Sequence record: OR067834.1
Length of the DNA: 64,000 nucleotides
From: Escherichia phage KKP 3715
Strand: one strand, 5' to 3'
Shown: positions 3,225 to 63,057 of the stretch, one piece after another
How the letters are laid out: the number at the start of each line of letters is the position of its first letter
Numbering within the stretch: the stretch's first letter is position 1
Translations under genes and position numbers: made by a program
Notes under the pieces: model-generated
What the model was told of the DNA's origin: nothing
What the model saw: only the letters and a program-made list of their open reading frames with translations
Database searches by the model: none

Positions 3225-3230
3225 AACTAA

Positions 3231-3255: not shown

Positions 3256-3324
3256 GTGCCACAAACAAATCATTGGGTAGACTGTTTCAGTCAATTACGA
3301 CTTAACCAACCTGAGAAAGTCCCT

Positions 3325-4527: not shown

Positions 4528-5008
4528 AGGTTGGCCTTATCTTCTGGTGGTGGTCCTCGGGGCCACCATTTACTTTTGGGGCAATTCCAATGGGCAGTCT
4601 ACTGTTCAAAAGAGGTGGGATGCCCAAAAGGTTGAAGACCTGAAGGCAACACAAAAACTACAGGACAAATACAATGCTCTCCAAAGAAACCATAGTTATG
4701 AAGTCGGGTTACTTACTTCCCGGTTGCAGACGGCTGAGAGTAATTACGCAAGCGAGCTTGCTCGCGTTAGCAGTGATTACGACAGCCGGATGCAACAGTC
4801 TGAAAGACGAGCATCGGTATATAAACGTCAAGCCGAAACCGGAACCCTTGAGTGCAGAAGTCTTGCAAGCCATGCAGCCAGACTCGACAACAGTCTTGAA
4901 GAAGGCAGACGTTTGGTTGAAGAACTCCGGGCAACTGTTAGACTCCGTGACAACCAACTAATTGAGTTGGGTAAGCAAATTCAGGCTGACCGTAAACTTT
5001 TTGAATAG
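4508..5008 (+). CDS. i-spanin (Rz-like)
   Basis: N-terminal TMD ([16 protein letters not shown]) then a long charged helical periplasmic domain; overlaps the endolysin stop; contains an embedded +1-frame lipoprotein ORF. Confidence 0.6.
4698..4961 (+). CDS. o-spanin (Rz1-like lipoprotein) embedded in the i-spanin gene
   Basis: MKSGYLLPG...LAVITTAGC: signal peptide ending in a lipobox-like TAGC, then a short Pro-containing periplasmic tail; lies entirely inside 4508-5008 in another frame. Confidence 0.55.
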   Translation: MKSGYLLPGCRRLRVITQASLLALAVITTAGCNSLKDEHRYINVKPKPEPLSAEVLQAMQPDSTTVLKKADVWLKNSGQLLDSVTTN

Positions 5009-10104: not shown

Positions 10105-10171
10105 TAGTCCTAAATAAAACAAGGGGGACTTATGTCCCCCTCTTAATAAAACTAGTTGAACCACAGGAAAT

Positions 10172-10813
10172 ATGAACATGAGCATTAACGATAAACCGAC
10201 CACTGACGTAGAACTGGACGTACAGGGCAACGAAGATACCGTTAACGATATTGCAATGCCTAGCGAACTTGAAGTTCTTAAGCAACGTGCAACGTTGATG
10301 AATATTAAGTTCTCTAACAACATCTCCGTTGAGAAGCTCCGTGAGAAGATTGAAGCTGCACAAGCAAAAGATGAACCAGAAGTAAAAGAATCAGCAGTTA
10401 ATCCTTTGGGTGAAAAACAGGAAGCTGGTGTTAAGAAAATGACCCTGGGTCAGAAGATTCGTGCAGAACAGACTCGACTGATTCGTGTACGTATCCAGAA
10501 CCTAGACCCTAAGAAGAAAGACCTGCCGGGTGAGATTATCACCGTAGCTAACGAATATATGGGTACTGTACGTAAGTTTGTTCCATTCGGTGAAGTCACC
10601 GACAATGGTTATCATATTCCGTACTGTATCTATGAGTTCCTTAAAGAGCGTAAGTTCATCAACATTACGACTCGTAAAGGTAAGAATGGCTTACCGGATA
10701 TCCGTGCAACAGAGGCACGTGAGTTCTCCATTGAAGTATTGCCTCCGCTGACTGAAGCAGAATTGACTCAACTGGCTCAAGCACAGATTGCTGCTGGTAG
10801 CCTGAACGATTAA
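10172..10813 (+). CDS. hypothetical virion-module protein
   Basis: 213 aa; AGGAAA RBS; followed by an intrinsic terminator. Confidence 0.45.
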   Translation: MNMSINDKPTTDVELDVQGNEDTVNDIAMPSELEVLKQRATLMNIKFSNNISVEKLREKIEAAQAKDEPEVKESAVNPLGEKQEAGVKKMTLGQKIRAEQTRLIRVRIQNLDPKKKDLPGEIITVANEYMGTVRKFVPFGEVTDNGYHIPYCIYEFLKERKFINITTRKGKNGLPDIRATEAREFSIEVLPPLTEAELTQLAQAQIAAGSLND

Positions 10814-14383: not shown

Positions 14384-14827
14384 ATGGATTTGTCATTCTT
14401 AACAGGCAACCAAACCCCACAGCCAGCTGCTATGTCTTGGATGTCTAATAACAATCAGAACTTTAATACCCCAGCTATGAACTATAACCCTGGTGCAGCT
14501 ATTGGTATGAATGCAGGTACAGGGTTAACTACACCTACATCTTTCTTATCTGGTTCAGCTAATCAGTTAGGTATGAACGTACCTACCTTCCAACTAGGAC
14601 TTGGTGCACTTGGTTCCTTAGCAGGTATCTATAGTGGTTTCCAGGCTAACAAACTAGCCAAAGACCAGTTGAACTTTACTAAGAGTGTTACTAACACTAA
14701 CCTGAATAACCAGATTAAGTCTTATAACACTGCACTGGAAGACCGTGCTCGTAGCCGTGCTACAGCAGAGAACCGTGATCAGTCTTCGGCTGATGCTTAC
14801 ATTGCAGCTAATAAACTAACTCGTTAA
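14384..14827 (+). CDS. small virion protein (hypothetical)
   Basis: ATG at 14384 with caggaga RBS (the track start at 14363 is a TTG overlapping the upstream stop); Asn/Gly/Thr-rich. Confidence 0.4.
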   Translation: MDLSFLTGNQTPQPAAMSWMSNNNQNFNTPAMNYNPGAAIGMNAGTGLTTPTSFLSGSANQLGMNVPTFQLGLGALGSLAGIYSGFQANKLAKDQLNFTKSVTNTNLNNQIKSYNTALEDRARSRATAENRDQSSADAYIAANKLTR

Positions 14828-14839: not shown

Positions 14840-16804
14840 ATGGCTCAAATTACATGGCGTAATGTTGATGCACCTAACTTCTCTGGAGTTGGTGACAGCA
14901 TTCGCACATTTGGCAGCATGATTGGTAACGCCACCTCCGGCTTAAGTGATGCACTGGGTAATTTCCAGAACGCTGCCAAGCAGGAGGCTGGCAATGCCGT
15001 CATGATGAATGCTATGCAGTACCAAGACCCGAATGAATACCGAAATGCTTTGGCATCCGGTGCATTGTTTCAGGGGGTTGACCCTTCACTGGTAAACCAA
15101 CGTACCCTTCAAAACCTGGATGAGCGAGCAGGAACACTACTGACTCAGCAGGGGCAGCAGGGAACCAATGACTACAATGCATATCGCTTTGGTCGTTTAC
15201 AGGATACTAACTCTGCATTAGATAATGCTTCCCCGGCTATTCGTTTACTATCTGAGGCTTATCAGTCCGGTGACCAGAACCGTATTAATGCTGCATTAAG
15301 TCAGACCCGTGATGCACTGTCTGCACTCCCTGCTGACCAGCAATTGGACATGCTTGGTCGTCTTCAAGGTCAGGGTGGTCAGGCTATTAATCAGGCACAG
15401 AACCGTTTTGACTTGGGTGTGGCTCAACGTAATGATGCCGATAGTCAGGCAGCTATGGGTGTAATGTCACAGATTACCCGTGGTGCTGAGAACCCCAATG
15501 ATGCCCGTCTGTTGGCTGAAGCATATAGTAAGAACCTGTCCCCGGTTGCACAGGCACGTTTGCAGGGATTACTGGCTAATGCTTACCCGGGTGTGTACGG
15601 TAACAATGTTGGTGCTACGTCTGCTCCGGGTACTGCTGGTACTCGTCAGGGTTCCCCTTACGATGTTACTTACCAGTTTGCTGGTACATCTACTCCTATT
15701 ACTCAAATGAGTATTGGTGATGTAATTAAACACCAGGATGGTATGAAGACGAACCAGGGTGCTTCACCTGTTGGTGCATTCCAGATTAACCAAGCTACTC
15801 TGAAAGACTTCGCTCCCAAAGTTCTTGGTTCAGATTGGCAAAGCCAGCCACTTTCTCCCGAGAACCAGGATAAGATTGGTAAGGCTATCTTTGAGGCCCG
15901 TAAGAATGGCAACCTTAAAGATACCTGGGCTGCTCTGCCTAACTCTACCCCAGGTGCTTATAAGGATATGACTTGGGAACAGATTAAACCTGTTATTGCC
16001 CAAGCTGAGGTGGGGGCTGACCCACTTGCTATGGTTCAGAATAATCAAGGTAATCAGGCAGTATCTACTCTGGCTCAGGGTATGATTGGTACTCGTTCTA
16101 TGCAGGATAACACCGGTAGTCTTAACACCGACTTCCTTGGTACTGTCACTGATAATACCCCAGTAGGTGAGATTGCTAACCGTCTGTTGGAAGGTGATTT
16201 TAAAGGTGCTGACCGTAACTGGGTACTGAACCGACTGAATGATATTTCTCAACGAGGGAATATGTCACCAGCTATGGCTGCTGCTGTTATGCAACGTGCA
16301 CAGACGGGTGTACCGGAAGGTTACATTAGCCGTGCTATTGATGCAGTTAACCCATTCATTACCAATGAAGCCGGTAATGGTATGCGTCTTAATGACCGTC
16401 AGGTAGAACAGTTAATCGAGGGTGTGAAACGGGGAGAGCCACTGGAAGGTAGTGTACGTAACCTTGGTCGTGCTCAGGCTATGCAGAACATTCAGGCAGC
16501 ACAGACTGCATATGATGCTGCTGTAGCTGCACTGACAAATACCCAGAATAAGATTAACACCGGACAAACTGGTCTTACTGCACTGTTACCTGCACGACAG
16601 GAGGCTGTTACTAAAGCTGCTGCAATGCTCCAAGCTGCACAGGCACAAGTACAGGCTGACCCAGCTAACCTGGCTCCAAGAGGTTTCCAGTCACAGTCTA
16701 GTGTGGACAGGGCACGAGCTAAGGAAGATGAAGAACGTGCTGCACGATACTTACGTCAGGCACAAGGACTGCCTGAGTATATGCAACCCAGACAAAATCG
16801 GTAA
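14840..16804 (+). CDS. virion protein with lytic-transglycosylase-like (SLT-like) segment
   Basis: 654 aa; internal segment VIKHQDGMKTNQGASPVGAFQINQATL resembles the SLT family pattern around the catalytic Glu-Ser and the GLMQ motif; rest is Gln/Ala/Asn-rich. Confidence 0.45.
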   Translation: MAQITWRNVDAPNFSGVGDSIRTFGSMIGNATSGLSDALGNFQNAAKQEAGNAVMMNAMQYQDPNEYRNALASGALFQGVDPSLVNQRTLQNLDERAGTLLTQQGQQGTNDYNAYRFGRLQDTNSALDNASPAIRLLSEAYQSGDQNRINAALSQTRDALSALPADQQLDMLGRLQGQGGQAINQAQNRFDLGVAQRNDADSQAAMGVMSQITRGAENPNDARLLAEAYSKNLSPVAQARLQGLLANAYPGVYGNNVGATSAPGTAGTRQGSPYDVTYQFAGTSTPITQMSIGDVIKHQDGMKTNQGASPVGAFQINQATLKDFAPKVLGSDWQSQPLSPENQDKIGKAIFEARKNGNLKDTWAALPNSTPGAYKDMTWEQIKPVIAQAEVGADPLAMVQNNQGNQAVSTLAQGMIGTRSMQDNTGSLNTDFLGTVTDNTPVGEIANRLLEGDFKGADRNWVLNRLNDISQRGNMSPAMAAAVMQRAQTGVPEGYISRAIDAVNPFITNEAGNGMRLNDRQVEQLIEGVKRGEPLEGSVRNLGRAQAMQNIQAAQTAYDAAVAALTNTQNKINTGQTGLTALLPARQEAVTKAAAMLQAAQAQVQADPANLAPRGFQSQSSVDRARAKEDEERAARYLRQAQGLPEYMQPRQNR

Positions 16805-16814
16805 TACTAATAAA

Positions 16815-16837
16815 AGCCCTACGGGGCTTTTTTCTTT
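16815..16837 (+). terminator. Rho-independent terminator
   Basis: agccc-tacg-gggct hairpin followed by tttttcttt. Confidence 0.6.
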
Positions 16838-16898
16838 AACTGGCTTACTGTAGAGTAAGTTACCTATATACGATATAAGTTTGAACAGGAAACATGCT

Positions 16899-19800
16899 AT
16901 GTCAACATTTGACCGTCTGGCAGGTTTCGCAGACAGCATCACTAATGCTAAGCAAGTCGATGTCTCTACTGCAACCTCTCAGAAGCAAGCTGCACAAGGG
17001 CAAAGCCCTTTCCAATTAACCCCAGAGAATGCTTACAATCTCCAGACTGGACGAGTAGGTAATCTTGGAATCGGTGCATTCGAACCAGATTCACTTCAGG
17101 CAGATTTCACTCAAGCCTCCCCATTAGAAATCATTAATAAATACGGTAATGAGCAAGGTTTACAGATTCTTAATAGCCGAGCTAATGCTGCTGATGTTGT
17201 ACGTCAGGACTTATCTAAACAGCGTACTAACGCAGAAGCATTTGGCGATACTCTTTCTGGTGTTGGTCTTGGTGTTGCTAATACCCTTGGGGGCATTGCT
17301 GCTCTTGGCACAGGTCTGGTCAATGATAATGCCGGGGCAACCATTGCTTCCGGGATGGATTGGTTGAATGAAGGCGTACACAATCTCCAGTCTGATGCAC
17401 TGAATGCTACCCGTAAAGTTGTTCAGAATCAGAACCAGATTTCTGCTCAAAAGAACCAGAAACTCTATGAAGAAGACATCAAAAATGGGGAGAGCGATTT
17501 GGTTGCCTCCTTGTCTCGCATTGGTCGTGACGCTTTCGATTCTGTTGCTAATACACTTGATAATGGTATGGCTGCTTCCGACGGACTGAGTGAAGGGGTT
17601 GGTTCCCTCTTTACTGGTGGTCCACTTATTCGTGGTGTATCTGCACTTGGTAAAGTAATGGTAGGTGGTGATAAAGCTGTTAAGGGTATTACCTTAGCTG
17701 CTGGGTTAGGTTCACGCCCTGCACAGGTTGCATTGTCTGCTGGTCGTGTTGCTGCACCTGCTATTGCAATCGGTGGTATGGAAGCTGGTGGTGCATACCA
17801 ACAGACTGCTTCTGAAATCATGAAGATGTCCCATCAAGAATTGGCAAGCAAGTCTCCTGTTTACCAACAACATATTGCTGATGGATTATCCCCTGATGAA
17901 GCACGTCGTCAGACTGCATCTGAAACAGGTATCATTGCTGCTGGCTTAACTGCTCCAGTTGCTGCTGCTACCGGCCCATTGGTATCTCGCTTTGAACTTA
18001 ATCCACTTAAGGTAGGTTCACTTGCAGGTGCTGGTTCTAATATGCTGCGTGAGACTGTAGAGGAAGGTATTCAGTCAGGCTTTGGTCAATATGCCCAGAA
18101 CCGTGCAATCAAGGAAAATGTTGATGCATCCCGTGACGTTCTCAAAGGAGTCGGTGAGCAAGCAGGTCTGGGTGCACTTTATGGCTTCGGTAGTGCTGGT
18201 GTTGCTCAAGCTCCTGGTGCAACTGTTAAAGCTGCCGGTGCTGCTGCTGGACCTGCTCTTCGTACTACTCTGGCTGGTGCTTCTCTGGTTGGTAAAACAT
18301 TAGCAAAAGCTGCATCTCCTCTTACTAATATCCTGGTTCAACGTGGTGAAGAAGTTGCTAAGCGTAATGAACAAGCATCCCCTGTAGCTGATGCTACGGT
18401 TAATGCTGCTGCACAGGAAGCTGCTGCTCAGGCAGAGCAAGCACAGGCAACTGTACAGGAAGCAGTAGATGCAATGGATATCTCTCCAGAAGAGAAAGCT
18501 GCTGCTACCCAATATGCTGCTGACTTAACTCAGGCAATGAAGTTTGATCCAGTAGAATTGGAACAAGCTAATCCAACAATCCGTGAAGCTGTTTCTGGTT
18601 CCACTAACCGTGTAGAAGCTATTCAGAAGATGGCTGACCTGGTTAATACTGCCGAAGACCCTAACGTTCAAATGGAAGCAGCAATCCAGATGTATGACAA
18701 TATCATGTCCATGGATAGCTTCATTAACCGTGACCCGGGTGCTCTGGCTAATCTGGAACAGGGTTCCCCTGCTGCTGCAATTGTAGACCAGTTCTCTGGC
18801 CTGATGGCTAACGTACAGAATACCCCTAAAGTACTTCGTGCATTCCGTGCTATTCATTCCATGATTCAGGAACAGGCTGAAGCAGGTAAGCTGAAAGCTA
18901 CTGAAGAAGCTAACCAAGCCCAGGCAAATAACATTGCTATGGCTGCTGATGTATCTCCAGAAGTGCTGGATGCAGATTCAGTGAACATGGTTCTGAAACA
19001 TGCAAGTGAAGGTAAGATTACATTAGGGAATCGTCAACGTGCTGCCCTGCAATCTGCTGCTGCCTTGTTACAGGGTGCACGTGAGTTCGACGCTAAAGCA
19101 GAAGAACTAGGCTTACGTCCTCAAGACATTGTTAGTAAACAGATTAAAACCGATGAGTCTCGTTCTAATGAAGGACAGTACTCTGCGTTGCAACATGCGA
19201 AACGCATTCGTTCTGCGTATAACTCTGGTAACTTCGATTTGGCCTCCGCTTATCTGAGCGACTTTATGAAGTTCGCCCAGCACATGCAGAATAAGGTCGG
19301 AGCGTTGAATGAGCATTTGATTTCGGGGAATGCGGATAAGAATAAGTCTGTTCATTATCAGGCTCTCTCGCCTTCCCGTGAATGGGTACGTAGTCGTACT
19401 GGCCTCGGTGTCAATCCTTACGATACCAAGTCTGTTAAGTTTGCCCAGCAAGTAGGACTGGAGGCCAAAACCGTAGCTGATATTGCTAATGCACTTGCTA
19501 CGGCTTACCCGGAGCTTAATGTTTCTCATGTGAAAGTTACCTCGTTGGATTCACGTCTGAACAAGCCAGCTGCCCAGGTAGTTAAAGAGTTCCGTCAAGG
19601 TGGTCTTGATGCCACTCAGTCTCAACAGACTAATGAACCAGTGAATCAGGTTGATGAATCTCCTGCACCAGTGCAAGAGGACACTACTACTGTACAGCCT
19701 AAAGCTAAACCAGTGGTAGAAAATAAGACTGCTCCTACTAAGGAGACTAGTCCAAAAACAGAAGAAGTCTCTACTACTAAGTCTGAAACAGTAGAAGCTA

Positions 19801-22800
19801 CCCCCACTAATGAGGATACCATCCAGGAAGTAGCCAAAACCAAAACAGAAATGGAAACAGTGTTCCCTGTCTATAACAATGAAAAGACACCGAACCAGTT
19901 CCTGAAAGCATTTACCTTACCAGAGGAACCTAAGTCTCGTACCGTTGGTTCTGAATCTCCTTTGGCTGATATTAAGCAAGCACTGTCTTCTGTTGCTCGC
20001 TTTGAGGCATTTACTCAAAAAGAAAATAACGTTCTCACAGGTGATGTGATTAAGCGTTATCAGGACTTAATGGACTTTGGGGAAACTCTGAAGACTACTT
20101 TGTCTGAACGATTGGCTAAGTTCCTTGCTAATAAGAACGTTGGTAAACGTTTTGCAGAAGGTACTGAAGCTAACCGTTGGGTAGGTGGCAAACTACTTAA
20201 TATCGTTGAACGAGATGGTGACACCTTTAAGTTTAATGACCAGTTGTTAGAGACTGCTGTACTTGCTGGTCTGCAATGGCGACTGACTGCTACACAGAAT
20301 GCTGCCATTAAAGACATGAAAGATGTGGCTGCTATTACTGGTGTAGAAGCATCTTTGTTACCAGAAGGTATTCTGGCTGAGTTTGAGAATGCCCAGACTC
20401 TGGTAGAAGCTACTAACTCACTGGCTCAGAAGATTGAATCCTACTGGGGTTTAAACCGTAATCCTAATGCACCACTTGGGTATACAAAAGGCATCCCAAT
20501 GGCAATGGCTACAGAGATTCTGTCTTCCCTCATTGAGATGGGTGAAGTTAAAGAATCTATGCTGGATGTGTCCGAGATTGACCCAGACTCCAATAAGACT
20601 GTCGGTCTGTATACTATTGAGAAGCTGGATGACAACGATGCCATTAACAAATTCCCTACTGCTATTGAGGAAGCTGTCCTCTTAGAACCAGAAGAGAAAA
20701 TGTATTTTGATGATGATATTCCTTCTGTGGCTCAAACTCAGTTGCGTAACCCTGCTGTTAAGAATACCCCAGAACAGAAAGCTGCACTTAAAGCTGAACA
20801 GGCTACTGAGTTCCGTGTACATATGCCGATGGTTAACTTCTATGAAGCATTAGGCCGTGACAACATTCTGGAACTGATGGGTGCTGGTACTCTTAATCCT
20901 GATTTGCTGAATAAAAACACTGCCAAATCTTTGGAAGGTAAAAACCTGTCCGTATCCATGGCATATGATTCTCTGTTCGGTGTAATTAATCAGATACGAG
21001 AACAAGAGAATGGTCTGGATACTCCTATTCACTACGGTTACAACATGACTCGTGTAGGTCGTATGCAGATGCTTGGTAAGAACAACCCACAATCCAGTAA
21101 ACTGGTTCGTGAAGCAATTCTGCCGACCTTCTCTACTATCGACTTGAGTAATGAAAACAGCCAAGCATTCTCTGACTTCCAGCTAGGACTGGCTCAGGCA
21201 TTAGGCATCAAGGTACATAAAATGTCACGTGAAGCTATGTCTGAAAATCTGACCAAAGCTCTGGAAGGCAATCTGAAGCCTGCTGTTGATATGATGGTTG
21301 AGTTTGATAAGGCTGGTTACTTACCTACTGATGCAGTAGATATTCTGAAGACTTCTCTGGGTGATAACAAATCCTTCGTGGCTCTCATGGCTCTGATGGA
21401 ATATGCCCGTTACCTGAACAGTGATGACCGTGCTAATTTTACTACTCCCTTGTACGTTGAAGCTGATGGTGTAACCAACGGCCCAATCAACGCAATGGTA
21501 TTAATGACTGGTGGTAAGTTCACGCCCGACTGGATTAAGAACACTGCCAAAGGTGGTTTGTTCTTTGGTCGTGCTGGTAAAACGATGAACGAACACTGTT
21601 CTATCGACGATAATGTTGACTTGTATGAAGCATCTACCAATGGTCTGCAACAAGCACTGAATGAGTTACGTACTACTTACCGTAACAACGTTCCGGTTAT
21701 GAGCCAGATGAATCATCTCCAGAAGTTAATGGACTTGTTCATTAAAGACTTTAATCTGAACGAAGACGGTACTCTGGACCTGAAACGTGGTATCGCTAAA
21801 AACCCACTGACCATTACCATCTATGGTTCTGGTGCACGTGGTATTGCTGGCAAGATGGTTAGTGCAATTACTGACACCATCTACGAACGCTTCAGTGACG
21901 TTCTGCAAGCACGGGCTGCTGACCCTAGCATTTCCCCAGCTATGGCAATGTTTGGTAAGGAGGCTGCGTCTGAGGCTGATGCTCAGGCTATGCTGGATAC
22001 TTTCCTTACTTCTATGGAAGCACTGACTGGCAATGTTCCAGTTATGCGTAAAGGTGAATTGTCTATTCAGCAAGTAGATGGTGCTCTGACTGGTAAGTTA
22101 GACCCTCAGAAGTTTACCGTATCCGGTAATGCTCTGAAGAACTTACAAGAGAACATGCTCCACCTGTTCGTTGAACCAATGCGTACCGGTATCCGGAATA
22201 CTGTTGGTGAAGGTCTGATGCACTCTACTGAGAATTTGCAGAAGGCTACCCAGATTCAATCTCTGGTATTGCAGGATATGTTCCAGCAAGCAGTACAGGC
22301 TAAGCTGGCAGAAAAAGAAAAAGACCCAACCTGGAAGAAGGGTGATTTCTTAACGCAGAAAGAACTGAATGAAATCCAGGAATCATTATCTCCACTGGCT
22401 CCAATGATTGAGACTGGCTCACAGACTTTCTACATTGCTGGCAGTGAGAATACTGATGTTGCTAACCAAGTACTGGCTACTAACTTAGATGATCGTATGC
22501 GTGTGCCAATGAGCATCTATGCTCCTTCACAGGCAGGTGTTGCAGGTATTCCATTTATGACCATCGGTACTGGTGATGGCATGATGATGCAGACCCTTTC
22601 TACTATGAAGGGTGCTCCGAAGAATACCCTGAAAATCTTTGATGGTATGAACATTGGTATCAGTGACATTACTGATGCAAGTCGTAAAGCTAACGAGGCT
22701 GTATACACTTCCTGGCAGGGGAACCCTATCAAGAATGTTTATGACTCCTACGCTAAGTTCATGAAGAATGTAGACTTCAGCAAACTGTCTGATGAAACCA

Positions 22801-25800
22801 AACAGGCTATCGCTAAATCTGCTCTGGAATATGACCTGCGTGAGGGTGCTACCGATGACCTGTTACGTGCAGGTGCTGAACAGATTGAACGTAACCTACG
22901 TAACATTGCTCTGGGTGTAGATATTCGTCACAAAGTGATGAACCAGGTACAGACCACTGTTGACCAGATGGCTGCTGTAGGTGCTCCTTATGTGAACAAC
23001 GGTAAAATCTCTCTGGAAGGTCTGACTGTAGACCAGCAAGTAGCTAAGCTAAACGAACTATTTGATGCTGAATTAAATAAGCGTCGTGATGCAGTACGTG
23101 CTGCTAAAGCAGAACCTGTTAAAGAAGTGCCAGCTATGGAACAAGTTGGTCGTGTACTGAAGTCTGGTGTACGTCTGTTGTCTAATACTGCTATCACTAA
23201 GCTGGCTAAAGAGATGACTTCTGAACAGCAAGCAGTATTGAAAGAAGTACAGAAATCCCTTGCTGCTAAAGACTACAAGGTTGTTTACGGTACTCCTGCT
23301 CAACTGGATGCTTATGCTATTGAGAAGAACATTACTCGCCCAGCACCGGAAGATATTGAAGCTGCCGAAGCTGGTAATGCATATGGCTGGACTAACTTTG
23401 ATGATAAAACCATCTACTTAGTTACCCCTTCCTTAGAGACTCTGGTTCATGAATTAGTACATGCTTCTACTTTTGAATCTGTACTGGCTCACTATGAGGG
23501 TACTCCTAACGAAGCAGTCCAGAACATCGAAGATCTTATGAACCAGTTCCGTACTCTGGATGTTAAGAACGAATCCCCGGCAGTACGTGAAGCATATGCT
23601 GATGCACTCAATACCATTAACGGTCACTTGTCTAATGGCTTTATTGAACCTGCAATGGCTAAAGCTGCTGCACTGAATGAGTACATGGCATGGGGCTTAA
23701 CCAATCGTGAACTGATTGGTAAGCAGAAGAAGACCACTGCACTGAAAACTATGGTTCAGTCTGTGTATGAAGCAATCAAGCGTCTGGTATTTGGTCGCAA
23801 GAAAGCACCTGCTAATGCAGATGATATGTTCTCCGGATTACTGTTTAACTCTTCAGTAGTTATGCGTGGGCAGGCTCCTACTGCTGCTGTATCCAAAGAC
23901 ACTACCTTGTTCCATAACAAAGCATATGGAGATAATACCCGTCTTGAAGAATTGGGGCAGACCTTTGATAAGCTGATTACTAACTACATTGGTTCTGAAC
24001 CAGTGCAGCAAGTAATTCGTAAAGGTAAGTTCTCTGATGCAGTAGTGAATGCAACTAAAGTAACTCGTGATGTTCAGGCTTATGGCTTTACCATGAATAT
24101 GCAGGAACAGCGATTGTTCACTAATATCGTTGCTGCTTTGGCTACTGAAGCTGCTATTAGTCCGGCTGCTCTTTCTCGTGCACAGGAATACTATGCACAC
24201 GTTACTAAGAACCTGACCGTTGAATCATTCATGGCTGACCCGGATAGTACTAACCCTGCTGACCGTTACTATGCTCAACAGAAGTTCGATACCATCATGG
24301 GTGCTAACAATATTGAGTTTGATGCACAAGGTCGTTCTTCCTTACTGCCTACCTTTGTTGGTCTGGCAATGGTAAGTGAAGAGGTGCGTAACGTACTGGC
24401 TAACATTCCTGTTATGAAAGCAGATAAGAAATCTGGTAATACCGTTGATGCAATGCTGACTAACATTGGTACTGCTGCAATGTCTAGCCTGAACGCTCGT
24501 GTAGCAGGTGATACCAAAGCTACTAACGTACAGGAAGGTATGGATGCACTGGCTCAGACAATCATGCAGACAAGTCTTAATGCACAGTCATTCTATGATT
24601 CCGTTGCTACTCCTAGTGGTAATGCTATTGACCGTGCTAACCAGTATCTGGTGGATTCTATTGATGCACTGTCTACTCGTGCTTTAGAAAGTGCTCGTGA
24701 AGTTGCAGCTAATACCAAGAACCCATTGGTTAAGGGTGCTGCTCATGCTGCACAATTGGTGGCTGCTATTGCTACTGAGAAGAACGGTGCAATCGTGGCA
24801 GAAGGTGTTATGGCTGCAATGAACCAGGGCAAGGTATGGCAACCTTTCCACGACTTGGTTAATGACTTAACTGGTCGTACTAAGAGCAATGCTTCTGTAT
24901 ACGATTTGATTAAAGCAGTTCGTGCACAGGTACAGGCTGACCGTCAGCAGTTCCGTGAACATCTGCCTACCACTATCGCATCTAAGTTCAGCCGTAAGCT
25001 GACTAACGATGAGTGGAAAGCAATGCACACCGGTATGGGTAAAACTGACTTAGCTGTTCTGCGTGACACTATGTCTCTGGCTGAAATCCGTGACCTGCTG
25101 TCTGACCAGAAGATTGTTGACCGTGAAGTGAATAAGCTGGAAGCAGATTTGCAGAAACAAGCTGGTCGTAACTGGCCTCTGATTAACCGTAAATCTAAGC
25201 AACTGGCTCAGTACATGATTAACGGTACGGTCGGTAATAACCTGCTGCGTAATGCTACTGCAATCTCCCGTATGCTGGGTGAACGTCAGGCTGCTCGCTC
25301 TACTGTAGATGTAGCTCAACTGGATAAACTGATTACCCTGTATGCACTGGAAGCAATGAACAAGTCCGACCGTGAGACGTTATCTTCACTGGCTCAGACA
25401 GAAGTTGAGGGAATGGACTTTGCTACTTCTTACCTGGTTGGACAACGTAAAGATGAAATGGCTAAAGCCAAGTCTGATATGCGTGCAACCCTGAACCAGT
25501 ACAAAGGGCATATTCCTAGTGAGACTAAACAGGGTGTTAATCTGATTGTTGCTGAAGATAGCCAGTTTGCTGATTTGATTGAGAAGTCCTATGTACGTCT
25601 GGGTACTTATCAAGGTAGCTCTGCTAACCGTGGTCCGGCACGTAGCTATTACTTTGCACCAGTACAGGCACAGGCTCCTTTCTCACAGGGTATCCTACAG
25701 AACGTTCGTAATACTGCTGGTGGTGTAGACCTCGGCACAGGCTTTACGATGGGTTCCATGGTAGCTGGTCGTATTACTGACAAGCCTTCCGTAGACCGTA

Positions 25801-27251
25801 TCACTAAAGCACTGGCTCGTGGCGAACGTGGTAATGAACCACTGCTGCCTGTATATGACGATAAAGGTAATGTAGTTGCCTATGAGCAATCCATTGACCC
25901 TAATATGCTGAAGCACATTGAGGGTGAGAACCATCTTGCCCGTGCAATCGGCGTATGGCGTGGTCGTCAGGTGGAAGAAGCTAAGGCTCAGCGTTTCAAC
26001 GATATGCTGATTGAGAACCTGCATAGCATGTATGAGAACGACATTAAGATGTCTGCCTCTAATAAGTCCCAGTACGTTAACCTTCTTGGTTCTAAATTGG
26101 ACCCAGTAACTGCTGATGCTCTTAAGCTAATGAATAGTGAAACCCGTCAGAAAGCAGAGAGTTTGTTCGGTGAGGGTGAACTGTGGGTACGTCGTGACAT
26201 GCTTAATGATGCACTTGGTTATCGTGCAGCTTCTGTAGGTGATGCCTGGTCTGGTAATTCTCGTTGGTCTCCGGAAACATTGGATACCTTTAAGAAAGCT
26301 ATGCTGGGTGTATTTGGTAACCGTGCCTATAAGTACACAATGGGTGGTGAGAACCTGGTTCAAAACTTAGTTAAAGAAGCTAAGACTCTGATTGTAGTTA
26401 AGTCAGTAGTCGTACCTGCTGTTAACTTCTTAGCTAACCTTTACCAGATGGTTGCCCGTGGTGTACCGGTTAAGAACATTGCTAAGAGCATTCCACAGAA
26501 GACTGCTGAGATTAACCAGTACCTTAAATCACGTCTGCGTCAGGTAGATGCAGAAGCAGAATTACGTGCAGCTACTAACCCGAACCAGATTCGTAAACTT
26601 AAGGCTGAGATTCAGTCCATTACTGATAGCCATAAGCGTATGAGTATCTGGCCTCTGTTGGAAGCCGGTGAGTTCTCTTCAATTGCAGACGCTGGTATTG
26701 GTCGTGATGACATCCTGATTACTGAAGGCAAACTCCACGAATACATGGATAAGCTGGCAGATAAGTTACCTAAGTCTGTGCGTACTGCCGGTCGTTATGC
26801 ACTTATTACTAAGGATACTGCTCTGTTCCAGGGTATCCAGAAGACGGTTGAGTACTCTGACTTTATCGCTAAAGCAATCATCTATGATGAACTGACTCAG
26901 CGTAAAGGTAAGACTCGTGAAGAAGCACTTGGGCGTGTAACGGAAGAGTTCGTTAACTATGACCGTTTACCTGGTCGCTTCCGTGGGTACATGGAAAGTG
27001 TTGGTTTAATGTGGTTCTACAACTTTAAGATTCGTTCAGCTAAGGTTGCTGTGTCCATGATTCGTAATAACCCTGTACATGCAACAATGGCGATGCTGGC
27101 TCCAACTCCTACCATGTTTGGTAACGTTGGCTTACCTATTCAGGACAACATCTTTAGTATTGCTGCTAAGGGTAGTCTGGATTACTCATGGGGCTTTGGT
27201 CAGGGTCTTCGTGCTCACAACCTGAACCCTTGGATGAACCTGGTAAACTAA
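16899..27251 (+). CDS. virion-encapsidated RNA polymerase (N4 vRNAP-like giant protein)
   Basis: About 3450 codons from the first ATG (AGGAAA RBS). Contains a single-subunit RNAP motif B-like RGIAKNPLTITIYGSG (Rx3Kx7YG) and a motif A-like EADGVTNGPINA; T/E/P/K-rich low-complexity linker near codons 910-990. Size and position match N4 vRNAP as recalled. Confidence 0.7.
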   Translation: MSTFDRLAGFADSITNAKQVDVSTATSQKQAAQGQSPFQLTPENAYNLQTGRVGNLGIGAFEPDSLQADFTQASPLEIINKYGNEQGLQILNSRANAADVVRQDLSKQRTNAEAFGDTLSGVGLGVANTLGGIAALGTGLVNDNAGATIASGMDWLNEGVHNLQSDALNATRKVVQNQNQISAQKNQKLYEEDIKNGESDLVASLSRIGRDAFDSVANTLDNGMAASDGLSEGVGSLFTGGPLIRGVSALGKVMVGGDKAVKGITLAAGLGSRPAQVALSAGRVAAPAIAIGGMEAGGAYQQTASEIMKMSHQELASKSPVYQQHIADGLSPDEARRQTASETGIIAAGLTAPVAAATGPLVSRFELNPLKVGSLAGAGSNMLRETVEEGIQSGFGQYAQNRAIKENVDASRDVLKGVGEQAGLGALYGFGSAGVAQAPGATVKAAGAAAGPALRTTLAGASLVGKTLAKAASPLTNILVQRGEEVAKRNEQASPVADATVNAAAQEAAAQAEQAQATVQEAVDAMDISPEEKAAATQYAADLTQAMKFDPVELEQANPTIREAVSGSTNRVEAIQKMADLVNTAEDPNVQMEAAIQMYDNIMSMDSFINRDPGALANLEQGSPAAAIVDQFSGLMANVQNTPKVLRAFRAIHSMIQEQAEAGKLKATEEANQAQANNIAMAADVSPEVLDADSVNMVLKHASEGKITLGNRQRAALQSAAALLQGAREFDAKAEELGLRPQDIVSKQIKTDESRSNEGQYSALQHAKRIRSAYNSGNFDLASAYLSDFMKFAQHMQNKVGALNEHLISGNADKNKSVHYQALSPSREWVRSRTGLGVNPYDTKSVKFAQQVGLEAKTVADIANALATAYPELNVSHVKVTSLDSRLNKPAAQVVKEFRQGGLDATQSQQTNEPVNQVDESPAPVQEDTTTVQPKAKPVVENKTAPTKETSPKTEEVSTTKSETVEATPTNEDTIQEVAKTKTEMETVFPVYNNEKTPNQFLKAFTLPEEPKSRTVGSESPLADIKQALSSVARFEAFTQKENNVLTGDVIKRYQDLMDFGETLKTTLSERLAKFLANKNVGKRFAEGTEANRWVGGKLLNIVERDGDTFKFNDQLLETAVLAGLQWRLTATQNAAIKDMKDVAAITGVEASLLPEGILAEFENAQTLVEATNSLAQKIESYWGLNRNPNAPLGYTKGIPMAMATEILSSLIEMGEVKESMLDVSEIDPDSNKTVGLYTIEKLDDNDAINKFPTAIEEAVLLEPEEKMYFDDDIPSVAQTQLRNPAVKNTPEQKAALKAEQATEFRVHMPMVNFYEALGRDNILELMGAGTLNPDLLNKNTAKSLEGKNLSVSMAYDSLFGVINQIREQENGLDTPIHYGYNMTRVGRMQMLGKNNPQSSKLVREAILPTFSTIDLSNENSQAFSDFQLGLAQALGIKVHKMSREAMSENLTKALEGNLKPAVDMMVEFDKAGYLPTDAVDILKTSLGDNKSFVALMALMEYARYLNSDDRANFTTPLYVEADGVTNGPINAMVLMTGGKFTPDWIKNTAKGGLFFGRAGKTMNEHCSIDDNVDLYEASTNGLQQALNELRTTYRNNVPVMSQMNHLQKLMDLFIKDFNLNEDGTLDLKRGIAKNPLTITIYGSGARGIAGKMVSAITDTIYERFSDVLQARAADPSISPAMAMFGKEAASEADAQAMLDTFLTSMEALTGNVPVMRKGELSIQQVDGALTGKLDPQKFTVSGNALKNLQENMLHLFVEPMRTGIRNTVGEGLMHSTENLQKATQIQSLVLQDMFQQAVQAKLAEKEKDPTWKKGDFLTQKELNEIQESLSPLAPMIETGSQTFYIAGSENTDVANQVLATNLDDRMRVPMSIYAPSQAGVAGIPFMTIGTGDGMMMQTLSTMKGAPKNTLKIFDGMNIGISDITDASRKANEAVYTSWQGNPIKNVYDSYAKFMKNVDFSKLSDETKQAIAKSALEYDLREGATDDLLRAGAEQIERNLRNIALGVDIRHKVMNQVQTTVDQMAAVGAPYVNNGKISLEGLTVDQQVAKLNELFDAELNKRRDAVRAAKAEPVKEVPAMEQVGRVLKSGVRLLSNTAITKLAKEMTSEQQAVLKEVQKSLAAKDYKVVYGTPAQLDAYAIEKNITRPAPEDIEAAEAGNAYGWTNFDDKTIYLVTPSLETLVHELVHASTFESVLAHYEGTPNEAVQNIEDLMNQFRTLDVKNESPAVREAYADALNTINGHLSNGFIEPAMAKAAALNEYMAWGLTNRELIGKQKKTTALKTMVQSVYEAIKRLVFGRKKAPANADDMFSGLLFNSSVVMRGQAPTAAVSKDTTLFHNKAYGDNTRLEELGQTFDKLITNYIGSEPVQQVIRKGKFSDAVVNATKVTRDVQAYGFTMNMQEQRLFTNIVAALATEAAISPAALSRAQEYYAHVTKNLTVESFMADPDSTNPADRYYAQQKFDTIMGANNIEFDAQGRSSLLPTFVGLAMVSEEVRNVLANIPVMKADKKSGNTVDAMLTNIGTAAMSSLNARVAGDTKATNVQEGMDALAQTIMQTSLNAQSFYDSVATPSGNAIDRANQYLVDSIDALSTRALESAREVAANTKNPLVKGAAHAAQLVAAIATEKNGAIVAEGVMAAMNQGKVWQPFHDLVNDLTGRTKSNASVYDLIKAVRAQVQADRQQFREHLPTTIASKFSRKLTNDEWKAMHTGMGKTDLAVLRDTMSLAEIRDLLSDQKIVDREVNKLEADLQKQAGRNWPLINRKSKQLAQYMINGTVGNNLLRNATAISRMLGERQAARSTVDVAQLDKLITLYALEAMNKSDRETLSSLAQTEVEGMDFATSYLVGQRKDEMAKAKSDMRATLNQYKGHIPSETKQGVNLIVAEDSQFADLIEKSYVRLGTYQGSSANRGPARSYYFAPVQAQAPFSQGILQNVRNTAGGVDLGTGFTMGSMVAGRITDKPSVDRITKALARGERGNEPLLPVYDDKGNVVAYEQSIDPNMLKHIEGENHLARAIGVWRGRQVEEAKAQRFNDMLIENLHSMYENDIKMSASNKSQYVNLLGSKLDPVTADALKLMNSETRQKAESLFGEGELWVRRDMLNDALGYRAASVGDAWSGNSRWSPETLDTFKKAMLGVFGNRAYKYTMGGENLVQNLVKEAKTLIVVKSVVVPAVNFLANLYQMVARGVPVKNIAKSIPQKTAEINQYLKSRLRQVDAEAELRAATNPNQIRKLKAEIQSITDSHKRMSIWPLLEAGEFSSIADAGIGRDDILITEGKLHEYMDKLADKLPKSVRTAGRYALITKDTALFQGIQKTVEYSDFIAKAIIYDELTQRKGKTREEALGRVTEEFVNYDRLPGRFRGYMESVGLMWFYNFKIRSAKVAVSMIRNNPVHATMAMLAPTPTMFGNVGLPIQDNIFSIAAKGSLDYSWGFGQGLRAHNLNPWMNLVN

Positions 27252-27289
27252 AATAAAAAAGCCCCTCTAATGAGGGGCTTCTATTTTAC
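27252..27289. terminator. bidirectional intrinsic terminator at the convergent junction
   Basis: Hairpin gcccctc-taat-gaggggc flanked by an A-run on the left and ttctatttta on the right, so both strands see a stem followed by a U-tract. Confidence 0.6.
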
Positions 27290-27618
27290 TTCTTAGCTAC
27301 AAGAATTTTTTTACCAGTCTTGATTACATAATCAATCTTGTTGGCTTCAAAATGAATATCTACAAAATCAGCATGTACACTTTGATAAGTACCATTGTTT
27401 CTACGAATACCTAACTTCTTACAGAGAACCATTGCAATTCCTGTATCTGGTACGGCAATCCAATTACTACCATCAATTTGTACATCACAGCCAAAGGTTA
27501 AACGGTGTCTTGCTTTACGATGTACATGCAATCCACCAATACGCTTTGGTATAAGCTGACCTTTCTTAAAGAGTTCCATAGTGCCCCTAGAATCTTTTGA
27601 TTCATTTAGTAAGAACAT
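27286..27618 (-). CDS. hypothetical protein
   Basis: 110 aa ORF; an internal ATG (MELFKKG...) with AGGGG RBS may be the real start; bracketed by hairpins. Confidence 0.35.
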   Translation of the reverse strand: MFLLNESKDSRGTMELFKKGQLIPKRIGGLHVHRKARHRLTFGCDVQIDGSNWIAVPDTGIAMVLCKKLGIRRNNGTYQSVHADFVDIHFEANKIDYVIKTGKKILVAKK

Positions 27619-28319: not shown

Positions 28320-28551
28320 AGTGACTTTAACGCAGTCAACGAGGCAGGCCGTCAAACTACTATCACTACAGGGTTAAGCGACCATGGGTTGATAGCCCGA
28401 TAGTAGTAAGACGTAGGTTTGGATTTCTAAGTGTTACCTTCACTAGCGAAATTCCCGTCGAGGGGAATAACAATACATTAGCAGCCACTGGACTGTCTTA
28501 CCAGTGTTGTCTTTAGAGTGCTGTGCAATCAGGACTATGTTACTGCTGAAT

Positions 28552-28628
28552 GGGTGTCCACTACTGGATTTGAACCAGTGACCTTCTGATTATTAGTCAG
28601 TTGCTTTCCCAGTCTAAGCTAAGTGGAC
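28552..28628 (-). tRNA. tRNA gene, isotype undetermined (anticodon loop reads CUAAUAA)
   Basis: Hand-folded on the - strand: 7-bp acceptor stem GTCCACT/AGTGGAC, D-stem GCTT/AAGC, perfect T-arm ACTGG-TTCAAAT-CCAGT, discriminator A, then CCCA. Anticodon stem has 4 bp plus an A-A mismatch. Confidence 0.5.
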
Positions 28629-28637
28629 ATAATATGA

Positions 28638-28710
28638 TTACCCGGGCAGGAATCGAACCTGCGTCCTAGTTAGTTTACTAGTGGGGCTTTACCACTAAGC
28701 CTACCGGGTA
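28638..28710 (-). tRNA. tRNA gene, isotype undetermined (anticodon loop of 6 or 8 nt, not 7)
   Basis: Hand-folded: 7-bp acceptor stem TACCCGG/CCGGGTA, D-stem GGCT/AGCC, T-arm GCAGG-TTCGATT-CCTGC at canonical positions 49-65, no encoded CCA; lies 9 nt from the previous tRNA. Confidence 0.45.
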
Positions 28711-32781: not shown

Positions 32782-33534
32782 TTAAGCGTAGTATTCAGCC
32801 AGATGGTCTAAGAGTTTCTGGGCATCATTGTCGATATAAGTCTGTGACTTATCAAACATACCCATCGGTGAGCGAAGACGTTTACCAACAGACTTCTTGG
32901 TTGGACGAGTCTGGAATACGTGCTTATAGCCTAAGTCACGTTCTTCTTCCGTAATATCAAGCATCTTGTTGCCATACTTCTCCAGTTCCTTAATGTCTAC
33001 ACGTTCTGCGTAAACCACTGTAGAGAAGTAAGCCTCAAGGCCATTGTTCTTCAGGGAACCCTTAACTGGGATGAATGTTTTCATCACACCAGCAGCTTCG
33101 TCGAGTTCATCTTTGGCATGAGCAGTAATGATTACTGGTTTACCAAACTTAACGACTTTCTGTTGCAACAGTATTTTAAAGAACTGTGCAAAGTCTCCCC
33201 AGGCTTTCTGGGTATTAGCAGAAGGCAATACATACTGGGATTCCAGCATGTCCATCATGAAGGTAGCAGAGTCGATAATGATGCCATCAACATCGTCTGC
33301 CATTTCACCACCAGGAGATGCAACATCAAATGCTTCCCAAATCTGATATGGGTCTTCAATGTTGTAGGTGTTGAACTTATTACGGAAAGGTAGACGCTTG
33401 CCTGCTTCTGTATTCAGATACAGCCATCGTTCCTGGTTCCGGATATTGCGCAGTGATGCTGATTTACCACTCGCTGAAAATCCTGCAATCAGGATTAGCT
33501 GAGTGTTCATATCGTTGGAGATTTCTTCGGACAT
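32782..33534 (-). CDS. P-loop ATPase (replication-associated, hypothetical)
   Basis: Walker A-like LILIAGFSASGKSAS near the N-terminus; 250 aa. Confidence 0.45.
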   Translation of the reverse strand: MSEEISNDMNTQLILIAGFSASGKSASLRNIRNQERWLYLNTEAGKRLPFRNKFNTYNIEDPYQIWEAFDVASPGGEMADDVDGIIIDSATFMMDMLESQYVLPSANTQKAWGDFAQFFKILLQQKVVKFGKPVIITAHAKDELDEAAGVMKTFIPVKGSLKNNGLEAYFSTVVYAERVDIKELEKYGNKMLDITEEERDLGYKHVFQTRPTKKSVGKRLRSPMGMFDKSQTYIDNDAQKLLDHLAEYYA

Positions 33535-58202: not shown

Positions 58203-58250
58203 CGCATATTCTCCAATTAGTTAATTACCACAAGGTGCGGAGCACCCTTC

Positions 58251-62512: not shown

Positions 62513-62534
62513 CCAGAACTGAGCCTTAGGCTTA

Positions 62535-62710: not shown

Positions 62711-62725
62711 AGACGCGGAGCGTCT
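62711..62725 (-). promoter_or_regulatory. candidate virion-RNAP hairpin promoter (AGACGC-GGA-GCGTCT)
   Basis: 6-bp stem, 3-nt GGA loop, no U-tract; same core as the hairpins at 63045 and 63907; upstream of leftward early ORFs. Confidence 0.45.
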
Positions 62726-63044: not shown

Positions 63045-63057
63045 GACGCGGAGCGTC
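63045..63057 (-). promoter_or_regulatory. candidate virion-RNAP hairpin promoter (GACGC-GGA-GCGTC)
   Basis: 5-bp stem, GGA loop, about 35 nt upstream of the ORF starting at 63010. Confidence 0.45.

Follow-up and report, generated by a model that had tools for sequence, protein, structure and literature searches.

A 3450-codon gene of Escherichia phage KKP 3715 predicted to encode an N4-type virion RNA polymerase

The virion RNA polymerase (vRNAP) gene is a textbook hallmark of the Schitoviridae, so that finding it in a further member has little discovery value. For gp50 of coliphage N4, kinship between the fold of the mini-vRNAP and that of T7 RNA polymerase (RNAP) has been established by crystallography (PMC13492108, PMC13434306). 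Residues 907-1006 of the N4 protein form a low-complexity linker that joins the N-terminal domain and the RNAP (PMC13434306), and R119 and W129 of the mini-vRNAP recognize the promoter base at -11 (PMC13492108). We here have analyzed 64,000 nucleotides of Escherichia phage KKP 3715 (OR067834.1; hereafter the window), which represent a typical Gamaleyavirus genome with about 94-96% identity to several phages already deposited. As a preliminary description of this DNA had stated, the + strand contains a single unbroken ORF of 10.35 kb, from an ATG at 16899 to a stop at 27251 (3450 sense codons plus stop). Judging from its homology, the ORF almost certainly encodes a single-subunit, T7-like, virion-encapsidated vRNAP, the N4 gp50 ortholog of a G7C-like coliphage (Gamaleyavirus, Schitoviridae); none of the results speaks against this. 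The gene is of an already known kind in a known phage genus and is an ordinary, well-described ortholog.

Homology and domain layout

Overall identity to N4 gp50 is 67% in an end-to-end alignment. A phmmer search of the PDB returned the full-length N4 vRNAP chains 11gp and 9pnr (query residues 1-3449 against 1-3499, E = 0, 5023 bits) as well as the mini-vRNAP crystal structures 2po4, 3c2p and 3q0a (about 1696 bits), which answers the proposal to compare the central region with the N4 mini-vRNAP. The vRNAP-specific Pfam entries PF21624, PF21894, PF21867 and PF21769 all matched far beyond their gathering scores (N4_RNAP_helical 7e-101, vRNAP_dom_2 2e-58, vRNAP_dom 1.2e-55, vRNAP_plug 2.7e-24), and PHROG 2206 'virion RNA polymerase' covered 25-3449 with 4131 bits. 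The N4 vRNAP architecture originally proposed for this gene is thereby borne out by full-length colinear homology, by four vRNAP Pfam domains and by a PHROG. Nucleotide matches to the gene occur in 88 phage records, while a protein-level search with the central 1106 aa as query reached 361 phage records across the Schitoviridae. Packaging in the virion, injection into the host and an early transcription resistant to rifampicin would be expected from the identities of 98% to Gamaleyavirus orthologs and 67% to N4.

The domain boundaries are listed in Table 1 with the other features of the locus. By homology, the N-terminal domain is probably lipid-binding and injection-related, and the C-terminal domain autoinhibitory and needed for encapsidation (PMC13434306, PMC13492108). 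The conserved HExxH of the C-terminal domain could mark an active metallopeptidase, an idea that is already in the literature for N4. Linker 1, identified at the outset as a T/E/P/K-rich segment, aligns with the published low-complexity linker of N4, to which it is 43.5% identical. Its aa 914-984 (nt 19640-19850) consist of 21% T, 15.5% E, 12.7% V, 11% P and 11% K and contain the richest 40-aa T/E/P/K/S/Q/V segment of the whole protein. The length of this linker varies among relatives, being about 25-30 aa longer in N4 and 139 aa longer in E20.

Table 1. Positions of the vRNAP gene, its domains and motifs, its neighbours and the candidate promoters in the window
Feature	Position	Strand	Basis
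gp52 ortholog, 147 aa from ATG, ejection protein	14384..14827	+	PDB 9yf4, E = 1.2e-43
gp51 ortholog, 654 aa, ejection protein, same operon as vRNAP	14840..16804	+	PDB 11mn, E = 3.6e-129
vRNAP gene (predicted N4 gp50 ortholog), 3450 codons + stop	16899..27251	+	ORF, homology, Pfam, PHROG
N-terminal domain, aa 1-901 (N4 1-906), 60.5% identical to N4	16899..19601	+	alignment
Linker 1, low-complexity, T/E/P/K/V-rich, about aa 902-987 (N4 907-1006)	19602..19859	+	composition, alignment
Polymerase (mini-vRNAP) domain, about aa 988-2071 (N4 about 1008-2104), 71.9% identical to N4	19860..23111	+	vRNAP_dom_2, vRNAP_plug, N4_RNAP_helical, vRNAP_dom
R1084 and W1094 (N4 mini-vRNAP R119 and W129)	20148..20180	+	alignment; PMC13492108
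T/DxxGR motif TRVGR, aa 1384-1388; R1388 = N4 R424	21048..21062	+	alignment, BLASTP vs T7
Motif A, EADGVTNGPINA, aa 1521-1532; catalytic D1523 = N4 D559	21459..21494	+	alignment
Motif B, RGIAKNPLTITIYGSG, aa 1630-1645; R1630, K1634, Y1642, G1643 = N4 R666, K670, Y678, G679	21786..21833	+	alignment
Motif C, TLKIFDGMNIG; catalytic D1915 = N4 D951	22626..22658	+	alignment
C-terminal domain, aa 2082-3450 (N4 2123-3500), 69.4% identical to N4	23142..27248	+	alignment
Conserved HExxH (HELVH), aa 2184-2188, subdomain C1	23448-23462	+	alignment
G+C-rich, terminator-like hairpin between converging late (+) and middle (-) units	27257..27282	both	hairpin scan, RNA folding
P3-like candidate, GGTGC-GGA-GCACC, upstream of RNAPII small-subunit (gp15) ortholog 58202-57384	58234..58246	+	hairpin scan, folding
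P2-like candidate, AGACGC-GGA-GCGTCT, upstream of gp2-like gene	62711..62725	+	hairpin scan, folding
Extra candidate, GACGC-GGA-GCGTC, upstream of DUF7279 ORF 63010-62732	63045..63057	+	hairpin scan, folding
P1-like candidate, ACATGC-GGA-GCATGT, flanks matching N4 P1	63907..63921	+ (= template)	hairpin scan, folding

Polymerase motifs and candidate early promoters

The catalytic residues of N4, R424, D559, R666/K670/Y678 and D951 in mini-vRNAP numbering (as given, citing Kazmierczak et al. 2002, in PMC2784036), are all conserved in the alignment, with identical local contexts, as R1388, D1523, R1630/K1634/Y1642 and D1915. Motif B, initially put at about 21783-21835, could be placed within a few bases of that estimate and equated with N4 R666/K670/Y678. 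Its pattern Rx3Kx7YG is found once in the protein, with 0.015 expected by chance. The segment that had been called 'motif A-like' contains the catalytic Asp that corresponds to D559 of N4. The description 'T7-like' holds for the four motifs, which occur in order, but not for direct sequence comparison: BLASTP against T7 RNAP (gene 1) was not significant (best E = 0.11, on the T/DxxGR motif, TRVGR/DWRGR). Neither Pfam RNA_pol PF00940 nor NCBIfam had a match in the protein, and a phmmer search of the PDB with the palm/fingers region, extended to E = 10, returned N4 chains only and no T7 or mitochondrial RNAP. To our knowledge, homology to T7 and mitochondrial RNAP is likewise undetectable in the sequence of the N4 vRNAP itself. 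Since direct sequence searches failed, T7-likeness is here drawn from motif order and identity and from the N4 structures. The 72% identity to the N4 polymerase domain points to a right-hand (palm, fingers, thumb), Pol I-like fold, which crystal and cryo-EM structures have revealed in N4 (PMC13492108).

Four candidates for N4-type DNA-hairpin promoters, each with a GC-GGA-GC core and CC at +1/+2, are present in the early region of the window (58.2-63.9 kb), all of them on the strand that would serve the early genes as template, in keeping with the earlier suggestion that early promoters would be hairpins. The scan rule (GGA loop, stem of at least 5 bp, CC at +1/+2) also recovers the published oligonucleotide sequences of N4 P1 and P2 and the N4 site before gp15, and shuffled sequences, in which only the mononucleotide content was preserved, gave 0.075 sites per window vs the four observed. 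The predicted +1 positions, read on the - strand, are 58223, 62707, 63040 and 63903. Because an exact search of the window with the N4 P2 hairpin gave only 2-mismatch matches, the structure-based scan was needed for all four sites. The DNA hairpins are predicted to be of modest stability (-4.3 to -5.3 kcal/mol, z -1.7 to -2.7), as is expected for short stems needing supercoiling and SSB. Among N4, E20, PhAPEC7 and the window the stems covary, and the GC-GGA-GC core is fixed. From the P1-like candidate, transcription would proceed leftward into the gp1 ortholog (63864-63541), and TTAATTACCA downstream of the P3-like candidate is common to the N4 promoter before gp15.

The stem of the fourth candidate, at 63045-63057, is identical to that of the P2-like one. 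The gp2-like early gene carries a homopolymer frameshift, with a probable indel at 62539-62543. It seems unlikely that this phage, with a fourth vRNAP hairpin promoter driving an extra DUF7279 paralogue and, in addition, a frameshifted gp2-like RNAPII cofactor gene, differs from N4 in its early/middle regulation; if promoter and frameshift were nevertheless real and not sequencing errors, the vRNAP regulon would be expanded and gp2 would be split or recoded.

A vRNAP homolog without polymerase activity, with a purely ejection-related or structural role like that of T7 gp16, is conceivable in that the protein also has an ejection role analogous to that of gp16 (PMC13434306). Such a derivative is nonetheless highly improbable here, as every catalytic and promoter-recognition residue is intact, the polymerase domain is the most conserved of the domains relative to N4 (71.9%), and matching candidate hairpin promoters with CC starts precede early genes.

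Reading-frame integrity and genomic neighbourhood

The ATG at 16899 (MSTFDRLAGF...) is the biological start of the vRNAP gene, with an N-terminus equal to those of N4 and PhAPEC7 and with AGGAAA 5-10 nt upstream; the ORF listing, 16881..27251 (+), counts from an in-frame TTG upstream of this ATG. The chance of 3450 stop-free codons at this base composition is about 1e-88. A sigma-70 promoter scan across the gene gave 4 sites, fewer than in shuffles (18.7), and internal promoters are thus unsupported. A chimaeric assembly, an objection already raised in the preliminary description, or a fusion of separate genes (e.g. internal virion protein, polymerase and structural protein) could draw some colour from the exceptional ORF length and from the probable indel at 62539-62543, a sign that the sequence is perhaps not error-free. 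As an explanation of the ORF it has a negligible probability and is effectively refuted: dozens of phages that were sequenced independently have the gene as one, colinear across 100% of its length, 60 phage records span at least 80% of it, mostly as a single colinear piece, residues 1-3449 align to the 3500-residue N4 protein, which was purified and solved as one chain (PMC13434306, PMC13492108), and there are zero indels relative to the PhAPEC7 vRNAP.

The genes for the ejection proteins gp52 and gp51 lie directly upstream of the vRNAP gene, which is the last of the gp54-gp51 operon. The order gp54-gp53-gp52-gp51-gp50 followed by a terminator matches that of PhAPEC7 and N4, and the genome also encodes RNAPII (gp15/gp16). 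The bidirectional terminator proposed at the end of the ORF corresponds to a hairpin detected on both strands, which folds as RNA with -18.9 kcal/mol (z = -5.4) on the + strand and -20.9 kcal/mol (z = -6.3) on the - strand, the latter having the better U-tract. Terminators on both strands are annotated at the equivalent spot after the vRNAP gene of PhAPEC7.

Proposed mechanism and comparison with described systems

The ORF, its homology, domain boundaries, residue conservation and neighbours, the terminator hairpin and the presence and placement of the candidate promoters were established directly here, and the mechanism is proposed by orthology from N4 (PMC13434306, PMC13492108, PMC2784036). 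Within the capsid, a few copies of the vRNAP would be stored as loosely folded, 'beads-on-a-string' chains. Upon adsorption, gp52 and gp51 would be ejected to form an envelope-spanning channel, and the vRNAP would follow, its N-terminal domain associating with the membrane and gp51 and remaining tethered via the low-complexity linker while the polymerase domain at the centre of the protein folds anew in the cytoplasm. This domain would then recognize hairpins that extrude where the DNA of the leading genome end is negatively supercoiled; these would have a stem of 5-7 bp and a 3-nt loop with a purine at -11, read by the residues equivalent to R119/W129. Initiating with GTP on template CC, the vRNAP would transcribe the early genes (gp1, gp2-like, RNAPII subunits), and transcription may also help to pull the genome in.

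Motif B, motif A and the linker make the gene recognizable in raw sequence. Together, the conserved residues and covarying stems of N4, PhAPEC7, E20 and this phage make up a small comparative data set, which agrees with the structural model of how the promoter is recognized, with a GC-GGA-GC core that is invariant, an outer stem that varies and a CC start.

With T7 RNAP, the vRNAP shares the order of T/DxxGR and motifs A, B and C (T7 DWRGR 421-425, D537, R627...G640, D812) and an identical Rx3Kx7YG spacing of motif B (T7 R627...G640). Outside the motifs there is no significant sequence similarity, and the vRNAP is about four times larger, would be packaged and injected, and would recognize single-stranded DNA hairpins, whereas T7 uses duplex promoters. 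The virion RNAP gp66 of the crAss-like phage phi14:2, compared from the literature alone, is likewise a giant, virion-packaged and ejected RNA polymerase, but belongs to another fold class (RNAi-type/two-barrel RNAP-related) and has no homology to the vRNAP (PMC13434306).

N4 gp50 (YP_950528.1; PDB 2PO4, 3C2P, 3Q0A, 9PNR, 9PNQ, 11GP) and the protein described here have a common three-domain architecture (N-terminal domain, linker, polymerase, linker, C-terminal domain), with the same T7-like motifs, catalytic residues, plug, motif-B loop regions, R119/W129 and HExxH in subdomain C1. Hairpin promoters with a purine-rich 3-nt loop and a CC start are a further likeness, those here being candidates. 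Of the 50 aa by which the present protein falls short of N4 gp50, most are accounted for by linker 1 (about 25-30 aa) and linker 2 (8 aa). There are four promoter candidates vs three promoters in N4, and the P1-like loop is GGA vs GAA in N4 P1. The absence of cysteine has been noted for the vRNAPs of N4 and of roseophages. One Cys is present here, at aa 1567 (TGT), vs none in N4, PhAPEC7 and E20, which leaves family membership unaffected, the trait being descriptive and not defining and the position variable (R/H/C).

The closest named system is the vRNAP of Escherichia phage vB_EcoP_PhAPEC7 (YP_009056186.1; Gamaleyavirus APEC7), which has the same 3450 aa without indels, is 98.1% identical in amino acids and 95.1% in nucleotides, and is encoded in the same gp54-53-52-51-50 operon. 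The two differ by 66 substitutions, whose density is highest in the linker (5.5%) and the polymerase domain (2.6%) and which include the Cys at aa 1567, Arg in PhAPEC7, and by the opposite-strand gene downstream, which encodes a 110-aa PHROG 29107 protein here vs a DUF2829 gp49-like protein in PhAPEC7.

Identity and architecture of the virion RNA polymerase

The long + strand gene of KKP 3715 encodes an N4-type virion RNA polymerase (vRNAP), as the preliminary description had proposed. In a phmmer search of all PDB chains, residues 1-3449 align with residues 1-3499 of the N4 'Virion DNA-directed RNA polymerase' (11gp, 9pnr and others; 5023 bits), four vRNAP-specific Pfam domains are present (N4_RNAP_helical, 7e-101; vRNAP_dom_2, 2e-58; vRNAP_dom, 1.2e-55; vRNAP_plug, 2.7e-24), and residues 25-3449 correspond in PHROGs to phrog_2206, 'virion RNA polymerase'. 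The central region matches mini-vRNAP, the central polymerase domain of the N4 protein, with residues ~995-2069 hitting the crystal structures 2po4, 3c2p and 3q0a at ~1696 bits in the same search.

The gene is a single uninterrupted + strand frame, listed as an ORF from an in-frame TTG (16881..27251). The true start is the ATG at 16899. The N-terminus read from there (MSTFDRLAGFADS...) is common to N4 (MSVFDRLAGFADS...) and to Escherichia phage vB_EcoP_PhAPEC7 (PhAPEC7), and AGGAAA is located 5-10 nt upstream. From this ATG, 3450 sense codons lead to a TAA stop ending at 27251, the length that had been read from the sequence; the probability of so many codons without a stop is ~1e-88 given this base composition. 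The hairpin that follows scores as a terminator on either strand (-18.9 kcal/mol, z -5.4 on +; -20.9 kcal/mol, z -6.3 on -), in keeping with the bidirectional terminator described at this end.

Domain limits (Table) were obtained by alignment with N4 gp50 and PhAPEC7 and transfer of the published N4 boundaries, which are NTD 1-906/919, linker 907-1006, RNAP 1007-2104 and CTD 2123-3500 (PMC13434306, PMC13492108). The T/E/P/K-rich linker noticed earlier is the published low-complexity tether and aligns with N4 linker 907-1006; nt 19640-19850 (aa 914-984) form the most biased segment of the vRNAP (T 21%, E 15.5%, V 12.7%, P 11%, K 11%). Linker 1 varies widely in length among close relatives, even inside the genus, N4 having ~25-30 aa more and the related phage E20 139 extra residues, inserted after window aa 982 in a protein of 3604 aa, consistent with a flexible tether whose sequence is little constrained. 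CTD subdomain C1 contains an HExxH motif (HELVH, aa 2184-2188, window 23448-23462) conserved with N4 (aa 2228), where it was noted as zincin-like by Bellis et al. 2026 (PMC13434306).

Table. Features of the vRNAP gene, its surroundings and the candidate hairpin promoters (window coordinates)
Feature	Position (nt)	Residues (aa)	Strand	Remarks
gp52 ortholog	14384-14827		+	PDB 9yf4 '16.5 kDa protein', 1.2e-43
gp51 ortholog	14840-16804		+	PDB 11mn '66 kDa protein', 3.6e-129
Weaker hairpin and T-run	16812-16831			-12 kcal/mol; between gp51 ortholog and vRNAP gene; annotated in PhAPEC7 too
NTD		1-901		60.5% identity to N4
Linker 1	~19602-19859	~902-987		43.5% identity to N4; ~25-30 aa shorter than in N4
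Pol domain		~988-2071		71.9% identity to N4
R424 equivalent		R1388		context MTRVGRM; alignment with N4
Motif A peptide EADGVTNGPINA	21459-21494	1521-1532	+
Motif A, D559 equivalent		D1523		context YVEADGV; alignment with N4
Motif B peptide RGIAKNPLTITIYGSG	21786-21833	1630-1645	+
Motif B residues		R1630, K1634, Y1642, G1643		alignment with N4
D951 equivalent		D1915		context KIFDGMN; alignment with N4
Linker 2		2072-2081
CTD		2082-3450		69.4% identity to N4
Terminator-like hairpin	27257-27282		both	G+C-rich; A-run and T-run on flanks; 5 bases past vRNAP stop
Hairpin promoter candidate	58234-58246		+ (template)	shares TTAATTACCA with N4 gp15 promoter; just before RNAPII small-subunit ortholog
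Hairpin promoter candidate, P2-like	62711-62725		+ (template)	structure scan
Hairpin promoter candidate, extra	63045-63057		+ (template)	GACGC-GGA-GCGTC, CC at +1/+2; ahead of DUF7279 ORF
Hairpin promoter candidate	63907-63921		+ (template)	N4 P1 flanks in common: ACATGTCCATA... and ...GTGTAACGTG

Catalytic motifs and the relationship to T7 RNA polymerase

The four T7-like motifs of N4 and its motif and catalytic residues R424, D559, K670, Y678 and D951, in mini-vRNAP numbering (PMC2784036, citing Kazmierczak 2002), are represented in the window vRNAP by identical residues in identical contexts. Both peptides singled out beforehand were exactly right: that given as motif B maps onto the N4 motif, and that given as 'motif A-like' holds the counterpart of D559. 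ORF, peptides, linker and terminator are confirmed in each detail. The -11 base readers of N4, R119 and W129 (PMC13492108), have their equivalents in R1084 and W1094.

The label 'T7-like' holds for the motifs but not for direct searches. T/DxxGR, A, B and C follow one another as they do in T7 RNAP, and Rx3Kx7YG occurs once in each of the two proteins, with a chance expectation of 0.015 per 3450 aa. Pfam RNA_pol, however, has no match in the vRNAP, phmmer at E up to 10 returns N4 chains only and no T7 RNAP, and BLASTP against T7 gene 1 reaches no better than E = 0.11, although this top local alignment falls on the correct T/DxxGR motif (IHYGYNMTRVGR vs IWFPYNMDWRGR). As in the literature, the T7 relationship rests on the motifs and on solved N4 structures.

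The vRNAP gene has a lone Cys codon (TGT, aa 1567, window 21597-21599) at a variable position, whereas the vRNAPs of N4, PhAPEC7 (Arg, CGT) and E20 (His) are cysteine-free. With one Cys alone, an intramolecular disulfide is impossible. The absence of Cys has been noted for vRNAPs as possibly relevant to ejection (PMC2784036).

Candidate hairpin promoters of the early region

Early promoters had been predicted to be hairpins, and four candidates were indeed found. The N4 P2 hairpin, with the query sequence taken from PMC13492108, matched the window twice, each time with two compensatory mismatches (GACGC-GGA-GCGTC vs GAAGC-GGA-GCTTC). A structure scan for hairpins with a perfectly paired stem (5 bp or longer), a loop of GGA and, on the template, CC at 11 and 12 nt to the 5' side of the loop centre returned four sites. 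All lie on the + strand, from which the leftward early genes would be transcribed; shuffles preserving mononucleotide base composition averaged 0.075 sites per window and never exceeded 1. The predicted DNA fold is the expected hairpin at all four (-4.3 to -5.3 kcal/mol). Applied to N4, this rule picks out P2 at 557-573 and the site ahead of gp15 at 4546-4562; with the loop relaxed to GAA it also picks out P1 at 90-102, which agrees with the oligonucleotide given for P1 in PMC13434306. In PhAPEC7 and E20, three GCGGAGC cores apiece lie at equivalent places, with differing, covarying outer stems. By sequence and position, the four hairpins are promoter candidates.

The count of four compares with three in each of N4, PhAPEC7 and E20. 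The extra candidate has a stem identical to that of the P2-like site and is followed by a DUF7279 paralogue, a 92-aa ORF (62732-63010); a second DUF7279 ORF lies at 63092-63484. The neighbouring N4 gp2-like early gene (62216-62699, -) is an RNAPII cofactor gene, and its counterpart in N4 acts as a cofactor in middle transcription. Here the gene is broken into two ORFs, of 55 and 98 aa, whereas PhAPEC7 has a single 161-aa gene. The cause is one extra base, T5 at 62539-62543 (A5 on the coding strand) as against T4 in PhAPEC7 and E20, and an in-frame 3-nt deletion lies close by. The T5 run is probably a homopolymer sequencing error; otherwise, the frameshift would be real. In the E20 record the gp2-like gene (9984-10367) is mislabelled 'integrase'.

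Genome context, proposed mechanism and relatives

Relative to a Gamaleyavirus genome, the window represents about the first 64 kb in reverse complement. The + strand carries late and virion genes, the vRNAP gene among them, between 1 and 27.2 kb; middle and early genes are on the - strand up to the right end, the equivalent of the genome's left terminus. Orthologs of N4 gp54, gp53, gp52 and gp51 lie 5' of the vRNAP gene on the same strand. In N4, gp52 and gp51 are ejection proteins, which pass the tail before the vRNAP and form an envelope channel (PMC13434306). By orthology with N4 (PMC13434306, PMC13492108), a few vRNAP copies would be encapsidated as loosely folded multi-domain chains; on receptor binding, gp52 and gp51 would be expelled and build the channel, and the vRNAP would come next, its NTD remaining with the membrane and gp51 and linker 1 serving as tether, while the Pol domain would bind supercoil-extruded hairpin promoters, initiate with GTP and transcribe the early genes. 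The CTD would be autoinhibitory and, in addition, necessary for packaging.

The first gene past the terminator (27286-27618, -) encodes a 110-aa protein of PHROG 29107, in the position taken by a DUF2829 gp49-like gene in PhAPEC7 and N4; megablast matches of PhAPEC7, PhAPEC5 and SP5M begin only past it, whereas E20, F22 and Bas96 match through, and it looks like a small cassette replacement. Window 1-3224 (+), with probable tail spike/fibre genes (ORFs 16-1185, with Beta_helix, and 1236-3224), is unmatched by megablast in the genomes that are closest elsewhere, where alignments start at ~3222-3244, a receptor-binding module exchange typical of G7C-like phages. ARAGORN finds a 79-nt tRNA-Ile (anticodon AAT; 28551-28629, -) and an adjoining tRNA-like gene whose two-base anticodon the program leaves undetermined (28638-28710, -), where PhAPEC7 has an annotated 'tRNA-Xle'. 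The gp44-like AAA ATPase/Sak4 gene (32782-33534, -) is one intact 250-aa ORF; its PhAPEC7 ortholog (21369-22353 of that record) is annotated as split by a putative endonuclease-encoding intron. In the capsid-gene region, a 472-aa ORF (8905-10323, -) antisense to a 400-aa + strand ORF (8902-10104) is most likely spurious.

Observation and interpretation of the vRNAP gene were both correct, and it is an already known gene in a known phage genus. With tblastn, the central 1106 aa match 361 phage records throughout Schitoviridae, from 97.5% down to ~22% identity, most of them annotated as virion RNA polymerase; several deposits misannotate the protein as 'DNA polymerase', 'translation initiation factor 2' or 'hypothetical protein'. 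The gene shares 92-95% nt identity with ~45 other G7C-like coliphages, and the remainder of the window 93-96% with the genus Gamaleyavirus. The annotated vRNAP gene of PhAPEC7 (Schitoviridae; Enquatrovirinae; Gamaleyavirus) is 95.1% identical in nucleotides across 100% of the length, and its protein 98.1% identical with zero indels.
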